Assembly (NCBI GenBank): GCA_016709145.1
Contig: JADJEK010000009.1
Span: 126,368 to 190,367, forward strand
Source: Planctomycetota bacterium
GTDB taxonomy: Bacteria; Planctomycetota; B15-G4; JADJEK01
Direction of reading: 5' to 3'
Length of the DNA stretch: 64,000 nt
Under the pieces are notes generated by a model, which was not told where the DNA came from, did no database searches, and was given only the letters and a program-made list of their open reading frames with translations. A program made the position numbers and the translations under genes. Shown here one piece after another: positions 1,880 through 62,695 of this stretch; the stretch's first letter is position 1; each line of letters begins with the position of its first letter.

Positions 1880-2235
1880 CCGCGCCCGCTGGCCCGCAGG
1901 GCAGGTGGTTTGGGGAGTCCTTGGGCCGGGGGTCGGCGTCCGCCCACGGGATGCTTGCGCGGGCGCTGGCGCGCGAAGCGAGGGGCGTCCCGCGCGGCTG
2001 ACGGGGATTGGTTTTGGATGGGCAGGGGCTTGCCGCGAAGGGCCGAGGAGTTCGTGGATGGGGGCCTTCTTCTTGGGGATCCGGCCGGGGCGGGCAGACC
2101 GCGCCGCGGCTTCCCTGAAGGTTTCGCGGCGGCGAAGCCCACGCGTTCTGTGGAGATGCGGAGGCGCCGTCGCGACCGAAGCCGGCGGGGGGCAGGCCGA
2201 CGGACCGTGGTGGACGGTGCAGGACGAGGCCTCCC

Positions 2236-2692
2236 GGGCCGTCCCGGGCGGCTACCGGCCCGGGCCGTCACCCGGGCCGTCACCGGCCGTCACGCCCGGG
2301 CCGTCCGCCGGGCCGGCGCGTCACCGGCTGGCCCCAGGCCGTCACCCGGGGGGGGAGGCCCCGGGCCGCGCGCGGCCCGGGCCGCCACCACGGCGGGGGT
2401 GCTGTTTGGGTTGTGCCGCGCCCCGCCCCCCCGGGGGGGCGGGGGGTTTGGGCGCGTCACCCCGGCACCCGCCCGGGCCGTCACCCGCCGTCACCCGGGC
2501 CGTCGCGCCGCAAACCGGGCGGGCGGCCACCCCCGGGCTGGCACCCGGGCCGTCACCCGGAGCGGCCGTCACCCGGGCCGTCACCCGGGCTGGCACGGGC
2601 CGTCACCGGGCCGTCACCCGGGCCGTCACCCGGGCTGGCACCCGGGCTGGCACCCGGGCCAGCACCCGGGCCAGCACCCGGGCCACTTCGCT
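2236..2692 (+). repeat. degenerate tandem array of a 12-nt unit CCGTCACCCGGG (variants CCGGGCTGGCAC and CCGGGCCAGCAC), interrupted by G/C homopolymers, directly upstream of the hydroxyproline operon
   Basis: 12-nt periodicity is visible from nt 2236-2340 and again from 2470-2690. The unit is the reverse complement of the array at 54075-54155. Confidence 0.8.
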
Positions 2693-15429: not shown

Positions 15430-15616
15430 CGCCAGCTCGGGCGTCGGCTTCACAAACGAGCGAAGCCCCCCTTTGGGAACCCCCGCGCCCTTGAGTCGCG
15501 CGTGAGACTTGACGACGTCCCTTGGCGACGGACTGGTTACTCGGGCGCGCGCGAGCTTGAACCCGAGGGAGAACTTCGGGTCGCGCTTCGCGCTCCGCGG
15601 TGGCGATTGAAGGAGT

Positions 15617-15646
15617 GGGGACAGAGCAGATGAGGGGACTGTCCCC
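15617..15646. repeat. REP-like hairpin type 1 (GGGGACAG-AGCAGATGAGGGGA-CTGTCCCC)
   Basis: Inverted repeat seen in the sequence. Identical copy at 23554-23584. Confidence 0.8.
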
Positions 15647-15664
15647 ACCGAGCTCGACGGCCAT

Positions 15665-15692
15665 GACGGGGACGGAGGCGCGTCTGTCCCCG
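15665..15692. repeat. REP type 2 (GACGGGGACGGAGGCGCGTCTGTCCCCGT), same sequence as the REPs flanking the RAYT gene
   Basis: Exact match to the REP copies at 47774-47803 and 48526-48555. Confidence 0.8.
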
Positions 15693-15757
15693 TTCGCGTC
15701 GGGTCTCGGTCACCGGTCACCGGGACTGCCGTCTCGCGTCCCTCGCACCTGCAACCA

Positions 15758-23553: not shown

Positions 23554-23584
23554 GGGGACAGAGCAGATGAGGGGACTGTCCCCT
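23554..23584. repeat. REP-like hairpin type 1
   Basis: Identical to the hairpin at 15617-15646. Lies between two convergent gene ends. Confidence 0.8.
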
Positions 23585-32507: not shown

Positions 32508-35251
32508 TCCGATCGTCCGCGCGAACCACGTTCGCCGGCGTTGCGTCCGCCATCGCCCTCGCCGCGGGAGTCCTCGCGGCGGGGGCGAGCGCGCAAACGC
32601 CGGCAGCGCCGAGCCCGGCCAAGAAGGCCGATCCGACCAGCGAAGAAGTTCCGTTGCCGGCGCTCGCCGGCTGGAACGGCACGCTCGTGATCGACAACGA
32701 CGTCGGCGTGTGGACGACGCTCTCCGCCGACATCCTGCCCGGGCACGGGTGTCCGCAGATCGTCGGGCTCGACGACAAGGGCCGCTGCATCGTGCTGTTC
32801 TCGTACAGCGGCAAGTGGACGCCGCTGCAGACGGTCGAGGACGGCGAGTGGCTCGGCGCGTTCGAGTTCGTCGATCTCGATCCGCAGCGACCGGGTCGCG
32901 AGATCTACACCGGCGGCAAGCGCGGCAACCTGTTCTGCATCCAGCCGAACGCGCCGCGCGATCCGGCGCTGAAGACGCCGCCGTTCCAGACCGACGTCGT
33001 CGCGCGCTTTCCCGGCGAAGAGCTGCACACGATGGTCGGCGGCGACTTGCTGCCGTCCGAGCCCGGCAACGAGCTGCTGCTGTACACGCTTCACGGTGCG
33101 GCATACCGCCTGAAGCCGCCGCGCGAGCCGCGCGGCATGCTCGTCGTCGAACCGCTCGGCGACGTCGGTGGTCGCGTACGCGAAGCGAAGATCCTGCCGG
33201 CGCGCGCGGGCGAAGCGCCGTGGATCGCGTGCGTGCTCCGTAGCGGTGAGATCCAACTGCAGCGCCTCACGCCAGGCGGCATCGAGCGCAAGACGATCAC
33301 GAAAGAACCGATGGGCTTCGGTCGCCTCGCGCTGCGCAAGTCCGCGGTCGGCGAGCCGGTCGTGTTCTACGCGACGCGCGACGATGGCGTCGTGCTGCGC
33401 TTCGAGGGCAGCCCCGACCGCGACGCATGGACGCGCGAGCTCGTCTACGCCGGGCCGCAAGGACCGCGCGGACTCGCGTGCGGGCGCTTCTCGGCGGATC
33501 CCGACGAAGAGACGATCGCGGTGTTCGGCTACGCGGCGAAAGTGCAATTGCTGTCGCGCAAGCGCGGGCAGCCGTGGCGCGCGGAGACGATCTTCGTCGA
33601 GCGCGACAAGGGCCATTGGCTCGCCGCGGCGGAGCTCGACGGCCGCAATGCGACGGACGAGCTGATCGCGTCGGGCTACGGCAAGCGTGTCGTGCTGCTG
33701 TCGCGACCGCCGGGATACGGCCTCTCGAACGTGCCGACCGACCCGGATCCGCCGCAGCCGCCGACGGTCGATCCGGGCAAAGCCGGCGCGCAAACTGCGC
33801 CGGAGGGCAAAGCCGGCGCGCAAGCTGCGCCGGCGGGCGACGGCGCGCTGCGCGTCGCGGTGCGCGCGCGGTTGCGCGAACCGGGCCGCGTCGACCCGCT
33901 GAAGTACCACGGCGGCTTCGAGACCAAGACGCTCGTCTACGAGACGCTCGTCACGCGCGACGCCGCCGGACGCATCGCGCCGAAGCTCGCGTCGGCGTGG
34001 GAACTCGAGGATGGTGGAGCGACCGTGAAGTTCACGCTGCGCGAGGGCGCGACGTTCCACGACGGCACGCCGGTCGACGCGCAAGCGGTCGCGATGCACT
34101 TCCGCCGCGTGCTCGGCTTGCCCGAGCACGCGTGGTTGCGCGGGCTCGCTCGCGTGCGGTCGGTCGACGTCGACGGGTCGCGCGTGCTGCGCTTCCGCCT
34201 CGACGCGCCGTGCTCGCTGCTGCCGGATCTGTGCGCGGTGAATCCGTGTTCGATCCGCGCGCCGTCGACGCTCGACCGCGAAGGCGAGTTCGTGCGCGCG
34301 ATCGGCAGCGGTCCGTTCAAGGTCGAGGCGGCGGACTCCGACGGCATGCGCTTGGCGTGGACGCGCGGCAAGGCGCGCTCACCGGTGCAGCTCGTGTTCG
34401 CGTCGGGCGCCGCGGCGGACCTCGTCGATCGTGTGCTCGGCGGTGAGTTGGACGTCGTCGCCGACGGTTGGAGCGAACTCGTCGATCGCTCGCGCGTCGC
34501 GGCGTTGAGGGACGATCCGCGCGTGCGCGTGATCGGCGGGCCCGGGTCGTCCGTCACGTACTTGTCGTTCCTGATCCGCGAGGGGCCGACCGCCGACCCG
34601 GCCGTCCGCGCGGCCGTGGCCGCGGCGATCGATCGCGCGGAACTCGTCAAGGACGTCGAGTTCGGCTGCGCGCAGCCGTGCGCGACGTTCGCCGCTCCCG
34701 CTGTCGCCGATTGGCCGCGAGCGACGCCGCGCGCGTCCGCGACGGACGTCGCGATCGATCGAGCGCTCGTCGTCGTCGGCGACGGCGCGACGCGCGACGG
34801 TCGGCTCGCGGGCGCGATCGTGGCGCAGCTCGCGCGGCGCGGAATCGCTGCGCAGGCGCGCGTGCTCGAAGGAGCGGAACTCGCGAAGGCGATCGAAGGC
34901 GGGGAGTACGACGTGCGGATCGAACGAACCTGGGGAGTGCCGTACGACCCGTACCTGTCGTTCGTGAATCGGTTCTCGACGCCGACTACCGGCGCGACCG
35001 CGGCGACGAAGCCGGTTGCCGGGTTCGACGCGGAACTCGCTCGGATCGCGGACGCGTTGCGCGGCGAGGTCGATCCCGCGAGGCACGGGGAGATGTACCG
35101 GAAGGCTCAGGCTCGGATCGAGGAAGCGAGTGTCGTCGTGCCGTTGTTCGTCGCCGAGAGGGTCGGAGTCGTGCGGAGCGGGGTTGGGGAGATTGCGATG
35201 GGGGTGAATCTTTATGAGATCGGGTTGGAGGGGGTTTTGCGCGGGCGGTGA
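32504..35251 (+). CDS. secreted fusion protein: N-terminal beta-propeller-like repeat domain, Pro-rich linker, C-terminal ABC-type solute-binding protein family 5 (DppA/OppA/NikA-like) domain
   Basis: ATGA overlap with the upstream gene. Signal peptide. Repeated hydrophobic-strand motifs (VLFSYSG, EIYTGG, VVFYAT, IAVFGY, LIASGYG). C-terminal LKYHGGFETKTLVYETLV...ASAWELEDGGATVKFTLREGATFHDGTPV matches SBP_bac_5. No permease or ATPase genes adjacent. Confidence 0.65.
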   Translation: MIRSSARTTFAGVASAIALAAGVLAAGASAQTPAAPSPAKKADPTSEEVPLPALAGWNGTLVIDNDVGVWTTLSADILPGHGCPQIVGLDDKGRCIVLFSYSGKWTPLQTVEDGEWLGAFEFVDLDPQRPGREIYTGGKRGNLFCIQPNAPRDPALKTPPFQTDVVARFPGEELHTMVGGDLLPSEPGNELLLYTLHGAAYRLKPPREPRGMLVVEPLGDVGGRVREAKILPARAGEAPWIACVLRSGEIQLQRLTPGGIERKTITKEPMGFGRLALRKSAVGEPVVFYATRDDGVVLRFEGSPDRDAWTRELVYAGPQGPRGLACGRFSADPDEETIAVFGYAAKVQLLSRKRGQPWRAETIFVERDKGHWLAAAELDGRNATDELIASGYGKRVVLLSRPPGYGLSNVPTDPDPPQPPTVDPGKAGAQTAPEGKAGAQAAPAGDGALRVAVRARLREPGRVDPLKYHGGFETKTLVYETLVTRDAAGRIAPKLASAWELEDGGATVKFTLREGATFHDGTPVDAQAVAMHFRRVLGLPEHAWLRGLARVRSVDVDGSRVLRFRLDAPCSLLPDLCAVNPCSIRAPSTLDREGEFVRAIGSGPFKVEAADSDGMRLAWTRGKARSPVQLVFASGAAADLVDRVLGGELDVVADGWSELVDRSRVAALRDDPRVRVIGGPGSSVTYLSFLIREGPTADPAVRAAVAAAIDRAELVKDVEFGCAQPCATFAAPAVADWPRATPRASATDVAIDRALVVVGDGATRDGRLAGAIVAQLARRGIAAQARVLEGAELAKAIEGGEYDVRIERTWGVPYDPYLSFVNRFSTPTTGATAATKPVAGFDAELARIADALRGEVDPARHGEMYRKAQARIEEASVVVPLFVAERVGVVRSGVGEIAMGVNLYEIGLEGVLRGR

Positions 35252-35425
35252 GGGAGGACGAGGGACGAGGGGGACGCGAGGGACGAGGGGGACGCGAGGG
35301 ACGACGAGGGACGCGAGGGACGAGGGGGACGCGAGGGATGAGAGGGACGAGGGGGACGACGAGGGACGCGAGGGATGAGGGGGACGCGAGGGATGAGAGG
35401 GATGAGAGGGACGCGAGGGATCGGA
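35251..35425. repeat. tandem array (about 19 copies) of the degenerate 9-nt unit GGGACGMGA (array A)
   Basis: 9-nt periodicity read directly from the sequence. Begins at the stop codon of the preceding gene. Confidence 0.85.
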
Positions 35426-47512: not shown

Positions 47513-47718
47513 GGGAACTCGGAGAGCGATGCAGGCGGCGAACTGTGGAACCCCGTGGTGGCGGAGAACCACGCAAGAAAATGACTCGGTCCTGCGTGAG
47601 GGGTCAATGATTCGACGATCTCGCGCCTCGATGCGGTCTTTCCGCGCAACGGCTCGGAGGCGGGCCTGGTCAGCGGGGGATCTCCACTCCCAAGACGTTC
47701 CCGCGCCGTCCACCGCAT

Positions 47719-48555
47719 GACGGGGACAGACGCGCCTCCGTCCCCGTCATGCTCGCAGGGCCACGGCCGCCGCGACGGGGACGGAGGCGCGTCTGTCCCC
47801 GTCATGCTGTAACCCCGGGGCCTCGCGTGCGTCTCCTCGGCATGGCACGACATCCACGACTCGTCATTCCTGAGTTGCTCCAACACGTCACCCATCGCGG
47901 CTGCGGCGGGCAGAGGATCTTTCGGGACGACGAAGATCGCCACGCGTATCAAGCGTCGACGGTCTTCCACGCGAACCGACTGGGCATTTTCATTCCCGGC
48001 CACGTCCAGATGGACAATCACGTCCACTTCGCGCTGTTCGTCCCGACGAAGAAGTCTCTCTCCGAGTTCATCCAGCGACTGCATTCCGAGCACGCGCAGC
48101 GCATGAACGCGAAGTACGGCACTTCGGGGCACTTGTTCGGCGATCGCTTCTATTCCGCCTCCGTCGATGACCGGCCGGCGCTCGAGGTCATTCGCTACAT
48201 CGACCTCAATCCCGTGCGTGCGGGCATGGTCGCGCGTGCGGAGGACTTCGTGTTCTCATCCGCTCGGGCGCACGCGTTGGGGATTCCCGATATCGTGACG
48301 GGCGAACTGTGGAAACCGCTGCGCGAGATCGAGAACTACGCGGAGTGGCTCCGCGAAGTGGCCCCGGATCACGAGCGGCGGCTTGCGACCATTCGCTTAT
48401 GCACGCGCCGGAGTCGCCGCATCACGAACCAGTTGATGTTCGGCGATCAACTGCCGCCTCGATGATGCATGACGGGGACAGACGCGCCTCCGTCCCCGTC
48501 ATGCTCGCAGGGCCACGGCCGCCGCGACGGGGACGGAGGCGCGTCTGTCCCCGTC
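47719..48555 (+). mobile_element. REPIN-RAYT unit: REP doublet (47719-47803), IS200-like Y1 (HuH) transposase gene, REP doublet (48471-48555)
   Basis: The two 85-nt flanks are identical. Each is two 30-nt REPs in inverted orientation (GACGGGGACAGACGCGCCTCCGTCCCCGTC and its reverse complement) separated by a 25-nt spacer. Confidence 0.8.
47842..48465 (+). CDS. REP-associated tyrosine transposase (RAYT; IS200/IS605 TnpA-like Y1 HuH transposase)
   Basis: HuH motif HVHFALF. Conserved Tyr region (YIDLNPVRAG) typical of RAYT/TnpA_REP. Start taken at MARHPRL because the upstream ATG at 47749 lies inside the REP. Confidence 0.75.
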   Translation: MARHPRLVIPELLQHVTHRGCGGQRIFRDDEDRHAYQASTVFHANRLGIFIPGHVQMDNHVHFALFVPTKKSLSEFIQRLHSEHAQRMNAKYGTSGHLFGDRFYSASVDDRPALEVIRYIDLNPVRAGMVARAEDFVFSSARAHALGIPDIVTGELWKPLREIENYAEWLREVAPDHERRLATIRLCTRRSRRITNQLMFGDQLPPR

Positions 48556-48566
48556 ATGCGTTCGGG

Positions 48567-49594: not shown

Positions 49595-50632
49595 TTGCAT
49601 GTCATGCCGAAACGGCGCGCCAGAGTACGCCACGACCCACAGGCGGTCAAACCGACGAAATCGCGACGAAAGGCCGCACCGCGACCGCGCGTGCTGGTCG
49701 TCGGGCCGAACAGCGCGATCGACGAAGTCTTCGCCACGCGCGGGTTCTGCCCGCTCGGCGGCGCGCGTGCCGCCCGCTCGTTCGCGTTCGCCGGCGGCAA
49801 GGCGGCGAACGCCGCGCACGTCGCCGCTCTCGAGGGCGCGGAGTCCACGCTGGTCGGCTTCGCCGGCGGTCCGCGCGGGCGAAGGTTCGCGCGCGGTCTC
49901 GTCGAGCGTGGCGTCCGCGGAGCTCTGGTGCGAACCGCCGCGGACACGCGCCGGACGTTCTGCTTCCTCGATGCCGATGGCGCGAACCCCGTCCTCGTCG
50001 TCGAGGACGGTTCGAGAGTCACGCACGACGAAGTCGCCGCGCTCGAGACGAAAGCACGACGCGAGATCGCGCGCGCCGACGTGCTCGTGCTGTCGGGAAG
50101 CGTGCCGCCGGGATGCGCTCCCACGCTGTACGCGCGACTGATCCGCGCCGCGCGCGAGCGCGGCGTCCCGACGGTCGTCGACGCGCACGGCGCCACGCTG
50201 CGCGCCGCGATCGCCGCGACACCGACCGTGATCGTTCCGAACGAGCGCGAGTTCGCGCAATGGCTCGGCCTCGCCATCGTCGACGGCGTCGACGACACGA
50301 CGCTCATCGACGGCGCGCGTGGCTTGCTCGATCGAGGAATGCTCGCGGTCGTCGTCAAGCAGGGCGAGCGCGGCGTTCTCTGCGTCGAGCGCGATCGCGT
50401 GACGCGCGTCGCCGGTCTGCCGCGCCTCGGCAATGCCACCGGATCCGGCGACGTCGTCACCGCGCACGTCGCGCTCGCGCTCGCGCGAAGGTGGCCCGTC
50501 GTGGTCGCGCTGCCGCGGGCCGTTGCCGCCGCCGGGGCGAACCTCGCGCATGAGCAGCCCGCGCATTACCGCGAGCGAGAGGTCTTGGAGTTGATGAGCG
50601 TGGTGGAGGTGCGCAGGGGCGGGGAGGGATGA
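49595..50632 (+). CDS. PfkB-family carbohydrate kinase (1-phosphofructokinase / tagatose-6-phosphate kinase-like)
   Basis: N-terminal VLVVGPNSAIDEV motif. C-terminal GSGD motif (NATGSGD). Divergent from the aldolase gene. Confidence 0.65.
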   Translation: MHVMPKRRARVRHDPQAVKPTKSRRKAAPRPRVLVVGPNSAIDEVFATRGFCPLGGARAARSFAFAGGKAANAAHVAALEGAESTLVGFAGGPRGRRFARGLVERGVRGALVRTAADTRRTFCFLDADGANPVLVVEDGSRVTHDEVAALETKARREIARADVLVLSGSVPPGCAPTLYARLIRAARERGVPTVVDAHGATLRAAIAATPTVIVPNEREFAQWLGLAIVDGVDDTTLIDGARGLLDRGMLAVVVKQGERGVLCVERDRVTRVAGLPRLGNATGSGDVVTAHVALALARRWPVVVALPRAVAAAGANLAHEQPAHYREREVLELMSVVEVRRGGEG

Positions 50633-50845
50633 GAGGGACGCGGGGGATGCGAGGGACGAAGGGGACGACGAGGGACGACGAGGGACGCGAGGGACGAGAG
50701 GGGCGCGAGGGGCGAGGGGCGCGAGGGACGCGAGGGGGCGGAGGGACGAGAGGGACGCGAGGGACGAAGGGGACGCGAGGGGCGCGAGGGACGAGAGGGG
50801 CGCGAGGGGCGAGGGGGACGCAAGGGACGAGGGGGACGCTGGGGA
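50621..50845. repeat. tandem array (about 25 copies) of the 9-nt unit GGGACGMGA (array B)
   Basis: 9-nt periodicity. Overlaps the last codons of the kinase gene and extends into the intergenic region upstream of the ECF sigma gene. Confidence 0.85.
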
Positions 50846-54074: not shown

Positions 54075-54155
54075 CCCGGGCGACGGCCCGGGCGATGGCC
54101 CGGGTGATGGCCCGGGTGACGGCCCGGGTGACGGCCCGGGCGATGGCCCGGGCCT
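54075..54155 (-). repeat. tandem array (about 6.5 copies) of the 12-nt unit CCCGGGTGACGG, the reverse complement of the 2236-2692 array unit
   Basis: Read directly from the sequence. Lies between convergent gene ends. Confidence 0.85.
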
Positions 54156-58135: not shown

Positions 58136-59631
58136 TGCTCGCTTGGCTCGTCGGATGGATGCTCGCGCAGGACGCGTCGACGGTTCCGGCGCCGCCGTCC
58201 TCCGTCGTCGCCGCGCGCGAAGCGATCGAAGCGCATGGACCGAGACTGGTGCGGGACGCGGTCGCATTCGTCGACGGGGACGACGACGTCGTCGAGCGCG
58301 CGCTGCAACAGCGAGCGTTCGAAGTCTCGACCGGCGCCGGCGAGGGCTGGATCGTCGCGGTCCGAGCCCGTCCCGATGCGCGGCGGACGATCGGGTTCCT
58401 CGTGTCGACCGAAGACCAGGCGTTCGCGACGCTGCCCGTCGCATCGGGTGGCCCATCGACGGACGGTGTGCTTTGGCGTGATCGCGGGCGCGGAGCCGTC
58501 GAAGGCGTGCTCCCGCCGCAGGACGGCGAGGCGGTCGATCGCACGCTGCGCTTCGAGGAGGGGGCGAGCGCCGGGAGGTTCGAACTCGCGGCGCTGCTCG
58601 CGGCGATCGACGCGCTCGACGCCGCAGGCATCGGTCCCGCGTCGAACCTCGTCGTCGCGATCGATCGCACGAATCGGCTCGAGGGCTGGGACGAGCTCGC
58701 GGCGCGCGACGTCCCGCTGACCGCCGAGCATGCCGCGGATCTGTGGTGCGTGTTCGCGGGCGCGCCGTTGCCGACGTCGCGCGCGACCGTGGCGTTCGGC
58801 GCGCGAGGCCGCGTCGACGTCGAGCTGACGTTCGACGTGGCCGGCGCGACCGCGGAGCTCGGCACGTACGGCGGCATCGTGCATAACGCCGCGCAGGTGC
58901 TCGCGACCGAGATCGCGGCGCTGCGCAACGAACGCGGCTCGGTCCAGGTCGCCGGCTTCTACGACGATGGCGAGGTGCCGACGGACCACGACTTGATCGG
59001 TCAGGCGCTCGAAGCCGCGCCCGACGTCGAATCGACGTTGAAGGACGCGTTCCGCATCGACGAAGTCGAACTCCCCGGCGTCGGCATGAACGGGCTCGCG
59101 CTGCGGCCATCGCTCGAAGTCGTCGCGCTCGACGCGGGTCGTGCGTTCGGCGACTCGCGTGCGTTCGTCGCGGGTCGAGCGAGCGCACAGTTGCGCGCGT
59201 TCACGATTCCCGGGCAGACGCGCGAACAGGTCGCTTCGCGACTGCGTGAGCATTTCGGCATGCGTGGATTCGTCGTCCGCGATGCGCCGCTGTCGGGAAC
59301 TCGAGTCGAACGCCACCGCATCGCGGCCTGCGTCGTGTCGGATCGCGGCTTCGACGCGCAACGCATGTCGCTCGACCAGGCGATCGTGATGCCGCTGTTC
59401 CAGGCCGTGTTCGCGATCGAACGCAAGCCCCCGGTCATCGCGCCGTCGCTGCCGGCCGCGCTCGATCTGGCGATCCTGCCGCTGAAGCCAGGCGGCGCGC
59501 GCGTGCTGCTGCCGCAAGGCAACGACTCGATGAGTCGGCTGCCGCCGCGCGTGCGCGAGAGCGGGACGGTTGGGGCTTATTTTCGGTGCGTCGAGACGGT
59601 TGCCGGCGTGCTCGAAGTCGGCGGTCGGTGA
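58135..59631 (+). CDS. hypothetical protein (weak resemblance to peptidase M20-like dimerisation architecture; function uncertain)
   Basis: ATGA overlap with crcB. 498 aa. No clear catalytic motif recognised. Confidence 0.45.
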   Translation: MLAWLVGWMLAQDASTVPAPPSSVVAAREAIEAHGPRLVRDAVAFVDGDDDVVERALQQRAFEVSTGAGEGWIVAVRARPDARRTIGFLVSTEDQAFATLPVASGGPSTDGVLWRDRGRGAVEGVLPPQDGEAVDRTLRFEEGASAGRFELAALLAAIDALDAAGIGPASNLVVAIDRTNRLEGWDELAARDVPLTAEHAADLWCVFAGAPLPTSRATVAFGARGRVDVELTFDVAGATAELGTYGGIVHNAAQVLATEIAALRNERGSVQVAGFYDDGEVPTDHDLIGQALEAAPDVESTLKDAFRIDEVELPGVGMNGLALRPSLEVVALDAGRAFGDSRAFVAGRASAQLRAFTIPGQTREQVASRLREHFGMRGFVVRDAPLSGTRVERHRIAACVVSDRGFDAQRMSLDQAIVMPLFQAVFAIERKPPVIAPSLPAALDLAILPLKPGGARVLLPQGNDSMSRLPPRVRESGTVGAYFRCVETVAGVLEVGGR

Positions 59632-59668
59632 CGCGACGGAGCGACGGACGCGAGGGACGCGAGGGACG
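59632..59668. repeat. short array (about 3.5 copies) of the 9-nt GGGACGMGA unit (array C), adjacent to a REP-like hairpin
   Basis: Directly after the upstream stop codon. Confidence 0.75.
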
Positions 59669-59670
59669 CG

Positions 59671-59705
59671 AAGGGTTCAGGGACTGACCCCGCATCGGGG
59701 TCTGT
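59671..59705. repeat. REP-like hairpin variant (GGGACTGACCCCG / CGGGGTCTGTCCCC) ending in the CCCCGTCATGC tail shared with the other REPs
   Basis: Near-perfect inverted repeat in the sequence. Confidence 0.6.
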
Positions 59706-59781
59706 CCCCGTCATGCGCCCGTCATGCGTTCGCGTTCCGTCGCCGTCGAGCACACCTCTTGAGTCCGGCGGCTGCGCCGCC

Positions 59782-62584: not shown

Positions 62585-62695
62585 CGAAGGGACGCGAGGG
62601 ACGCGAGGGACGATGGGGACGACGAGGGACGACGAGGGACGCGAGGGACGACGAGGGACGCAAGGGACGCGGGGGACCGCAGGGACGCCTTGGAC
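62585..62695. repeat. tandem array (about 12 copies) of the 9-nt GGGACGMGA unit (array D) in a divergent promoter region
   Basis: Lies between the start of the minus-strand beta-helix gene (62476) and the plus-strand gene starting at 62800. Confidence 0.85.

Follow-up and report, generated by a model that had tools for sequence, protein, structure and literature searches.

A REP-associated Y1 transposase gene of the TIRYT / Group 1 branch, probably fixed in the chromosome, in an uncultured Planctomycetota lineage

We analysed a stretch of 64,000 nucleotides (nt) from a Planctomycetota bacterium (GenBank assembly GCA_016709145.1, contig JADJEK010000009.1, positions 126,368 to 190,367), referred to as the window in the following. 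It contains a gene for a HuH-type Y1 transposase enclosed by two identical doublets of a repetitive extragenic palindrome (REP). An earlier note, made from the letters of the window, had described this arrangement as a complete unit of REP doublets forming hairpins (REPINs) and a REP-associated tyrosine transposase (RAYT). Our data suggest that the locus is probably a chromosomally fixed, vertically inherited, REP-associated Y1 gene together with its cognate palindrome, whereby the enzyme is of the TIRYT / subclass 2.1 / Group 1 type. The gene is intact with catalytic motifs and a RAYT-like fold, it is under purifying selection at a fixed syntenic locus, identical copies of its repeat are dispersed in related genomes, and each paralog of the gene is paired with a repeat of its own.

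The repeat next to the gene (type-1 REP) is a 30-nt palindrome, GACGGGGACAGACGCGCCTCCGTCCCCGTC. It is found exactly at 47719 and 48471 on the plus strand and at 47774 and 48526 on the minus strand, and one more copy, differing at a single position, at 15665-15694; the earlier note had given this copy as 15665-15692. In the shuffle control (100 shuffles) 0 copies were expected. The four exact 30-mers constitute the two doublets. These are 100% identical, as stated before, but their length is 93 nt and not 85 nt: 47715-47807 equals 48467-48559 in direct orientation, with the Y1 gene in between. Within each block the inverted REP pair represents a perfect 34-bp inverted repeat with the 25-nt spacer as loop, i.e. 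inverted REPs with a short spacer in one long hairpin, which is the form of a REPIN. Folded as single-stranded DNA (ssDNA) the doublet reaches -55 kcal/mol (z = -13), while single hairpin units fold at -12 to -15 kcal/mol. The two arms of one REP unit mismatch at two positions (A-C and C-C). The unit thus has an orientation, and the same mismatches become paired within the doublet. Outward from the Y1 gene either side reads the identical 34 nt, GCATGACGGGGACAGACGCGCCTCCGTCCCCGTC. On the left the doublet is placed between the Y1 gene and the start (~47512) of a spermidine-synthase-like gene on the minus strand.

The type-1 REP contains GGGGACAG, an instance of the GGGGWSAS motif shared by repeats flanking TIRYT genes (Di Nocera et al. 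2013, PMC3733652; Quentin et al. 2018, PMC6006769). GGGGACAG is present in every type-1 REP as well as in every copy of a second hairpin type described below, and palindromes of this kind also flank distant homologs of other phyla. The GT[AG]G foot is absent from the type-1 REP, whose flanks read GCAT/GACGGGGAC...GTCCCCGTC/ATGC. An assignment to the CGTC-tagged REPs was rejected. These are described with an unpaired terminal CGTC, an 8-9-bp stem opening with A/T pairs and a loop of 4-5 nt (Di Nocera et al. 2013, PMC3733652), whereas here the CGTC lies within the stem, paired with GACG, and the loop comprises 12 nt (6 nt with a G-T wobble and two inner pairs). Lacking the foot and having its CGTC paired, the type-1 REP therefore stands outside both tagged REP super-families of Di Nocera et al.

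The product of the Y1 gene matches Pfam Y1_Tnp (PF01797) with 1.5e-10 and 41.7 bits at a cutoff of 23. It carries the HuH motif H60-V61-H62 and the catalytic Tyr119 within YIDLNP. In an alignment of 40 homologs H60, H62, Y119 and N123 are invariant, and 40/40 open with MARxxRL at position 47842, in agreement with the start favoured by the earlier note. The stretch Y119-I-D-L-N123-P124 corresponds to the Y...NP signature and not to Y...Q of IS200, which places the protein in class 2 (Y...NP) of Quentin et al. 2018. Of the subclass 2.1 signature the protein has NHVH, YIDLNP and FSS; it shows FG at the W[EQ] position, where most relatives have WE or WQ. A protein with 100% identity, annotated as transposase, is encoded in a metagenome-assembled genome (MAG) of an uncultured planctomycete.

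The AlphaFold model of the protein (predicted local distance difference test 93.7) has its best PDB match in 4ER8, the E. coli TnpA_REP bound to REP (E 8.8e-9, TMt 0.74, 170 columns), at an aligned structural identity of only 17%. TnpA of IS608 and of ISDra2 are the next structural matches with ~1e-5. A profile of the homologs searched against PDB sequences likewise retrieves 4ER8 on top (1.6e-8), and a single-sequence phmmer search of the PDB returned nothing relevant. In the model the helical tail of the 207-aa protein is shorter; the relatives P0069 and P0024 carry C-terminal helix-turn-helix (HTH) domains.

The family was further narrowed down by BLASTP against the RAYT and TIRYT sequences printed in Additional file 5 of Di Nocera et al. 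TIRYTs are matched at 1e-16 to 1e-32 with 31-40% identity, the best being TIRYT pca_3049 (1e-32). Matches to the RAYTs of Pseudomonas and Stenotrophomonas range from 1e-3 to 3e-8, and E. coli YafM is matched at 4e-3. In a neighbour-joining tree the protein is nested in the clade of long TIRYTs, the deep nodes of which are weakly supported. According to Quentin et al. 2018 (PMC6006769), subclass 2.1 equals Group 1 of Bertels and the TIRYTs of Di Nocera. By its sequence the window protein belongs to TIRYT / subclass 2.1 / Bertels Group 1, whereby the Group 1 assignment rests on this equivalence table and the sequences of Di Nocera et al. The former designation as RAYT type is hence correct in so far as the protein is RAYT-like (Y...NP, 4ER8 as best structure), and needs correction in that it falls outside Groups 2/3 and is matched to TIRYTs at 1e-32. 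A classical REPIN-associated RAYT of Groups 2 or 3 was rejected (48.9 bits against a cutoff of 80 in the respective model; BLASTP 3e-8 and 4e-3 against 1e-32 for TIRYTs). The same applies to an ordinary IS200 TnpA, in keeping with a test that the earlier note had named: the NCBIfam IS200 model (NF033573) yields 20.3 bits at a cutoff of 55, the motif is Y...NP, and the gene is single-copy at a syntenic locus. The neighbouring open reading frames, a spermidine-synthase-like gene and a DeoC aldolase gene, are not tnpB-like.

Three Y1 paralogs occur in one genome (accession blocks MBK694xxxx and MCC717xxxx). Besides the window protein (P0001) these are P0150/P0007 and P0004, which are 57% and 63% identical to it, respectively. 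On each side of P0150 there are two type-2 hairpins, all four in one orientation, and the exact 30-mer of the hairpins at 15617 and 23554 in the window is among them. In P0005, a 79% ortholog of P0150, the UbiD neighbour and the flanking repeats are the same. P0004 shows the array (CCCGGGCCGTCA)x9.5 upstream and a reverse-complement array downstream (L046 3872-3985 and 4821-4891); judged by this position, arrays of (CCCGGGCCGTCA)n may be the cognate repeat of P0004. The pairing is one-to-one: the type-1 REP goes with P0001, the type-2 hairpin with P0150 and the 12-nt arrays with P0004. The coexistence of three enzyme-repeat pairs in one genome accounts for several repeat types being scattered over the window.

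This pairing also revises the view of the other hairpins. Exact copies of the type-2 hairpin, GGGGACAGAGCAGATGAGGGGACTGTCCCC, stand at 15617 and 23554, where it had been reported before. Its interpretation as a variant of the same system did not hold, since it is the cognate repeat of P0150. The two hairpin types of the window are therefore orphan repeats, each type being cognate to a different paralog. The third variant given at 59671 needs correction, too. This hairpin (59680-59716) has no more than 18 nt, GTCTGTCCCCGTCATGCG, in common with the REP, joined to a different hairpin. Moreover the repeats were said to lie at convergent gene ends throughout, which is contradicted by the divergent setting of the left doublet and by hairpin 23554 between co-directional genes.

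As a separate observation on the paralogs, P0150 (L063 1927-2550) and P0007 have lost the near-invariant Pro of Y...NP and read YVELNS or YVELNT, while P0005 keeps NP. The loss may have weakened their activity.

A further feature common to the paralogs is a GTAACC box. In all three paralogs and the orthologs it directly follows the proximal repeat, 31-36 nt before the ATG. Being kept in the ortholog and both paralogs, it suggests expression signals at the repeat-gene junction; from its position the box may be a promoter, a leader or a 5'-untranslated-region element. Outside the window these boxes are located on L047 (~5966), L063 (~1896), L058 (~1468) and L046 (~4075). A simple consensus scan around the repeat-gene-repeat unit gave neither a sigma-70-like promoter nor an intrinsic terminator, and Rfam at gathering thresholds has no match in the 64-kb window.

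The dispersal of the REP was evaluated by scanning a degenerate REP pattern over one genome per bacterial or archaeal species. All REP counts come from two related Planctomycetota MAGs, which are fragmentary species representatives. The pattern is found on 42 of their contigs with 45 exact 30-mers, often at contig ends; at <=5 mismatches the two MAGs hold 34 and 30 copies, respectively. The REP thus reaches beyond the few sites of the window, another point on which the earlier note had asked to be tested. Two matches outside the Planctomycetota (L030, L040) differ in their inner sequences and were taken as chance palindromes. In a metagenome contig collection, which is without the JGI samples bearing the orthologs, only 2 unrelated contigs were matched. 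In one of the related genomes, MAG-32, REP-containing modules are dispersed over at least 25 contigs with unique flanks. Many MAG-32 contigs end in REPs, i.e. the repeats break metagenome assemblies, and since these contigs are otherwise unique the REPs are true dispersed repeats. In the ~200 kb of REP-bearing loci from the two MAGs most dispersed REPs are singlets or same-orientation tandem runs.

Comparison of lineages shows both constancy and change. The 30-mer is 100% conserved between lineages despite ~86% genomic identity. The spacer of the doublets is the same on both sides of the gene within a genome and unrelated between lineages, hence the flanking doublets are homogenised or turned over per lineage. 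At the RAYT locus seven REPs are present in the lineage of the ortholog P0002 versus four in the window. The 21.7-kb region of L053 that is orthologous to ~5.7-27.5 kb of the window is devoid of type-1 REPs at <=5 mismatches, whereby the intergenic region matching the 15665 site is too rearranged for a clean comparison. The 15665 REP appears to be present in the window genome and absent at L053. The lineage differences in REP content are compatible with gain and loss.

Among the alternatives the one that survives best regards the repeats as static host elements (terminators, mRNA-stabilising hairpins or structural sites). The Y1 protein would be co-opted for another task on ssDNA or would maintain or edit the repeats, and the doublets would be identical owing to local gene conversion or duplication. 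Hairpin 23554 fits well, since runs of A and T enclose it and its orthologous counterpart matches 30/30, and so do two of the orphan sites, which lie at convergent 3' ends. The low number of REPs, the lineage-specific spacers pointing to homogenisation between the flanks, and the literature view of Group 1 RAYTs as co-opted proteins of unknown function without REPINs go in the same direction. On the other hand, static elements would not be expected to lack any type-1-like copy in the L053 region (with the rearrangement mentioned), to differ in number at the RAYT locus or to occur as modules with unique flanks all over MAG-32. That the 30-mer is perfect at ~86% genome identity speaks rather for templated copying or enzyme-mediated selection, and at the flanking doublets the simple consensus scan detected no intrinsic terminator. 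We therefore regard this explanation as rather improbable overall. It may apply to some copies but leaves the lineage differences and the cross-species uniformity unexplained.

Several observations nevertheless weigh against a REP-associated enzyme with a dispersed cognate palindrome. The complete genome of the window's own organism is outside the scanned collection. Copy numbers are low, with ~30 REPs per related MAG and one orphan type-1 REP in the 64-kb window, and this is well below classical REPIN populations. An inverted doublet with the 25-nt spacer was not found away from the gene among the ~200 kb of REP-bearing loci; in these fragmentary MAGs the doublet is thus not seen as the dispersed replicating unit that defines REPINs, the spacers of the gene flanks occurring only at the RAYT locus. 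Hairpin 23554 is retained 30/30 at the orthologous L053 site, which marks it as an old copy, static on that time scale, and it may have a terminator-like role in the host. The top NCBIfam model of the protein, REP_Tyr_transpos (NF047646), is hit below its cutoff (48.9 bits), and Pfam detects only Y1_Tnp at E <= 0.01 and none of the C-terminal HTH domains Bac_DnaA_C, HTH_23 and HTH_28. Finally, there is no direct sign of enzyme activity or recent movement. The claim of a system that is still propagating is accordingly not borne out, given the modest copy number and the conservation of the orphan hairpin 23554 at its orthologous site.

The locus itself is well conserved. An 87%-identical ortholog, P0002, is encoded on JGI metagenome contigs of ~86% nucleotide identity to the window, in the order spermine-synthase-like gene, RAYT, DeoC aldolase, PfkB, sigma-70 and Ser/Thr kinase (Pkinase). 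A conspecific assembly (GCA_020851675.1, 99% identical) has the same repeat-gene-repeat unit, and contig L032 (MAG_700) ends in the same RAYT locus. The ratio of nonsynonymous to synonymous substitution rates (dN/dS) between the orthologs is 0.24, compared to 0.11 for the adjacent aldolase. Synteny and dN/dS together indicate a gene that stays at its site, is inherited vertically and experiences purifying selection, and not a hopping insertion sequence (IS). In line with this it exists as one copy only in the 64-kb window and all fetched loci, none of which is a closed genome, and the paralog pair P0150/P0005 resides at a conserved syntenic locus as well.

An autonomous IS, in which the Y1 gene and a perfect terminal inverted repeat of 34 bp on either side would form a mobile unit (47774-48504) and leave the solo REPs as remnants resembling miniature inverted-repeat transposable elements (MITEs), is suggested by the same 34 nt facing outward on both sides, by flanks that are 100% identical as after a recent event, and by Group 1 being the most IS-like of RAYT Groups 1-5, behind only Group 6 (6.3% duplicates, 1.2% on plasmids; Bertels 2017, PMC5581495), but it is very unlikely in view of the single copy, the ortholog in the same syntenic slot of a genome ~14% diverged and the second paralog behaving alike, a dN/dS of 0.24 that is between orthologs and not between copies, and a protein that goes without tnpB, has Y...NP in place of Y...Q and remains at 20.3 bits below the cutoff of 55 of the IS200 model.

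In addition the P0002 lineage displays a duplication at this locus. The right doublet and ~175 nt of the aldolase 3' end are present twice (L047 6630-7436; L032 5508-6335), and the two copies bracket an insert of ~460 nt with a small minus-strand open reading frame. The window lacks this arrangement, which is a repeat-associated rearrangement.

Table 1. Repeats and genes of the REP-associated Y1 system in the window (positions of the 64,000-nt stretch)
Feature	Position	Strand	Remarks
HUH/Y1 transposase-derived gene (P0001)	47842..48465	+	intact, 207 aa, RAYT-like, TIRYT / subclass 2.1 clade
left REP doublet	47715..47807	.	REP(+) 47719-47748, 25-nt spacer, REP(-) 47774-47803; divergent intergenic region 5' of the gene
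right REP doublet	48467..48559	.	REP(+) 48471-48500, REP(-) 48526-48555; fills the 101-nt gap before the convergent aldolase gene
GTAACC box	47809..47814	+	33 nt 5' of the Y1 gene ATG; same distance in the ortholog and both paralogs
orphan type-1 REP singlet	15665..15694	-	1 mismatch; between convergent genes
type-2 hairpin orphan	15617..15646	+	repeat flanking P0150; hetero-doublet with the REP at 15665
type-2 hairpin orphan	23554..23583	+	between two co-directional (-) genes; A and T runs on either side
12-nt tandem array (CCCGGGCCGTCA)n	2233..2684	+	intergenic; flank unit of P0004
12-nt tandem array (CCCGGGCCGTCA)n, opposite orientation	54075..54153	-	intergenic
degenerate/hybrid hairpin	59680..59716	+	shares GTCTGTCCCCGTCATGCG with the right arm and tail of the type-1 REP

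For a fixed REP-associated Y1 gene with its cognate palindrome, a mode of action can be proposed from E. coli TnpA_REP and IS608 TnpA (PMC3479197, PMC8266576). By analogy to these enzymes the protein would bind the folded REP hairpin on ssDNA, for example on the lagging-strand template, and would recognise the stem with GGGGACAG and its two mismatches. Cleavage at the foot of the hairpin would proceed through Tyr119 and the HuH-bound metal via a 5'-phosphotyrosine, after which the DNA would be rejoined. In this way REP units could be excised, copied or rearranged in trans, the gene itself no longer being mobile. Catalysis, the ssDNA mechanism and any present-day mobility are extrapolated from the characterised relatives.

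The closest known counterpart is the TIRYT or TIRtron system (Di Nocera et al. 2013, PMC3733652). Both share NHVH, YI[ED]LNP and SS, a single-copy gene and flanks with GGGGWSAS. The 1152 TIR family of S. maltophilia is likewise self-complementary and moderately abundant and occurs as singlets, dimers and clusters. In contrast to the TIRYTs, the window protein has 207 aa (median ~238) and no HTH tail detected by Pfam. The window flanks are full inverted REP doublets with a perfect 34-bp hairpin, which sets them apart from TIRYT / subclass 2.1 in general. Three diverged paralogs with their own repeats in one Planctomycetota genome, one of these repeats being a 12-nt tandem array, are a further difference.

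With the REPtron of E. coli TnpA_REP (YafM; 4ER8, Group 2 / subclass 2.2) the locus has in common a single-copy gene, flanking inverted REP pairs, the Y...NP motif and imperfect palindromes whose mismatches mark the orientation. It differs by a REP without GT[AG]G foot and by NHVH, where YafM has EHMH (DHLH being the subclass 2.2 consensus). E. coli harbours several hundred REPs, far more than found here.

The REPIN-RAYT systems of Pseudomonas (Group 3; Bertels and Rainey 2011) are similar in having several RAYT paralogs per genome, each with a repeat family of its own, and in vertical inheritance. Their doublets form long hairpins too, in which the REP mismatches become paired, and the pattern of one enzyme and one repeat is shared with Pseudomonas and Stenotrophomonas alike. 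However, the Pseudomonas doublet is a dispersed replicating unit in hundreds of copies, whereas here tens of REPs are found and doublets with the gene-flank spacer only at the gene. Protein clade and repeat sequence both differ as well. IS200/IS605 TnpA (IS608, ISDra2), from which the proposed mechanism is derived, corresponds in the HUH/Y1 fold and the association with DNA hairpins. Unlike these elements, the window gene is not multi-copy, occupies a conserved chromosomal locus and is without Y...Q, tnpB and distinct subterminal hairpins of a left and a right end. Functionally the system would work like a REPtron or REPIN-RAYT, in a configuration (TIRYT plus self-complementary cognate repeat) that was outlined already by Di Nocera et al. 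2013 (PMC3733652).

Other repeats were observed in the window and its relatives. The hairpins at 15617-15694 adjoin a segment (15447-15612) that is one arm of a larger conserved element (L033 6158-7080; L053 12300-12540). The arm is dispersed in at least 16 MAG-32 contigs, abutting the REP. Its full form in L033 consists of REP, arm, a centre of ~160 nt, inverted arm and REP (~540 nt), and the long stem has compensatory differences between L033 and L053. Rfam gave only sub-threshold, generic matches to long hairpins (microRNA-like) on the element from L053 and L033. It could be a REP-bounded MITE, a cargo element or a structured RNA.

A tandem hairpin repeat of ~41 nt, CCCGGACAGGATTGCCGGCGGCAGTTTCGTCCGGGTA, is present in ~3 copies in L053 (12050-12200) and ~6 in L054 (12050-12330), two samples of the same population, and related CCGGAC...GTCCGG hairpins flank REPs in MAG-32. 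Another dispersed MAG-32 module, ...GAACGTGAACGGGACCATGGAAAACGGTGACGGCGGCGCGGGACCCGGAGGCACCGG..., resembles a conserved N-terminus, MENGDGGAGPGG..., that recurs in many contigs (L003, L014, L039, L041, L043 and L044, with repeat-unique junctions). The intergenic regions of the MAG-32 lineage are mosaics of several repeat modules. G-rich 9-nt arrays (GAGGGACGC)n are located at 35250-35420, 50624-50839, 59630-59671 and 62588-62688 of the window, all G-rich on the plus strand and mostly intergenic, and no gene was found to go with them. Their GGG runs are 6 nt apart and match the G-quadruplex consensus; similar 9-10-nt arrays are seen in MAG-32 (L008, L012, L015).

Group 1 / subclass 2.1 is the largest RAYT group and is described as co-opted, of unknown function and without REPIN association. 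Bertels and colleagues report REPIN association for RAYT Groups 2 and 3 only, and in the study of Quentin et al. 2018 (PMC6006769) REP-like sequences were absent from the vicinity of subclass 2.1 genes. In published surveys no REPs or REPINs adjoin the TIRYT / Group 1 branch, which leaves its function an open question. The locus described here widens the range of REP/RAYT-type systems by an uncultured Planctomycetota lineage and by this branch. With three paralogs and three repeats in one genome, it is a compact, testable case for the choice of hairpins by Y1 enzymes. A more general idea, put forward tentatively as we consider it less probable than its negation, is that Y1 proteins of Group 1 / subclass 2.1 act as processing enzymes on repeats, every one of them on a cognate repeat of its own. 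If true, one small genome would contain three paralogs (57-63% identity to the window protein) whose substrates are as different as a 30-nt mismatched palindrome, a large-loop hairpin and a 12-nt tandem array. This would imply a Y1 enzyme able to seed or maintain microsatellite-like arrays, and would offer a natural system to map the determinants of specificity.

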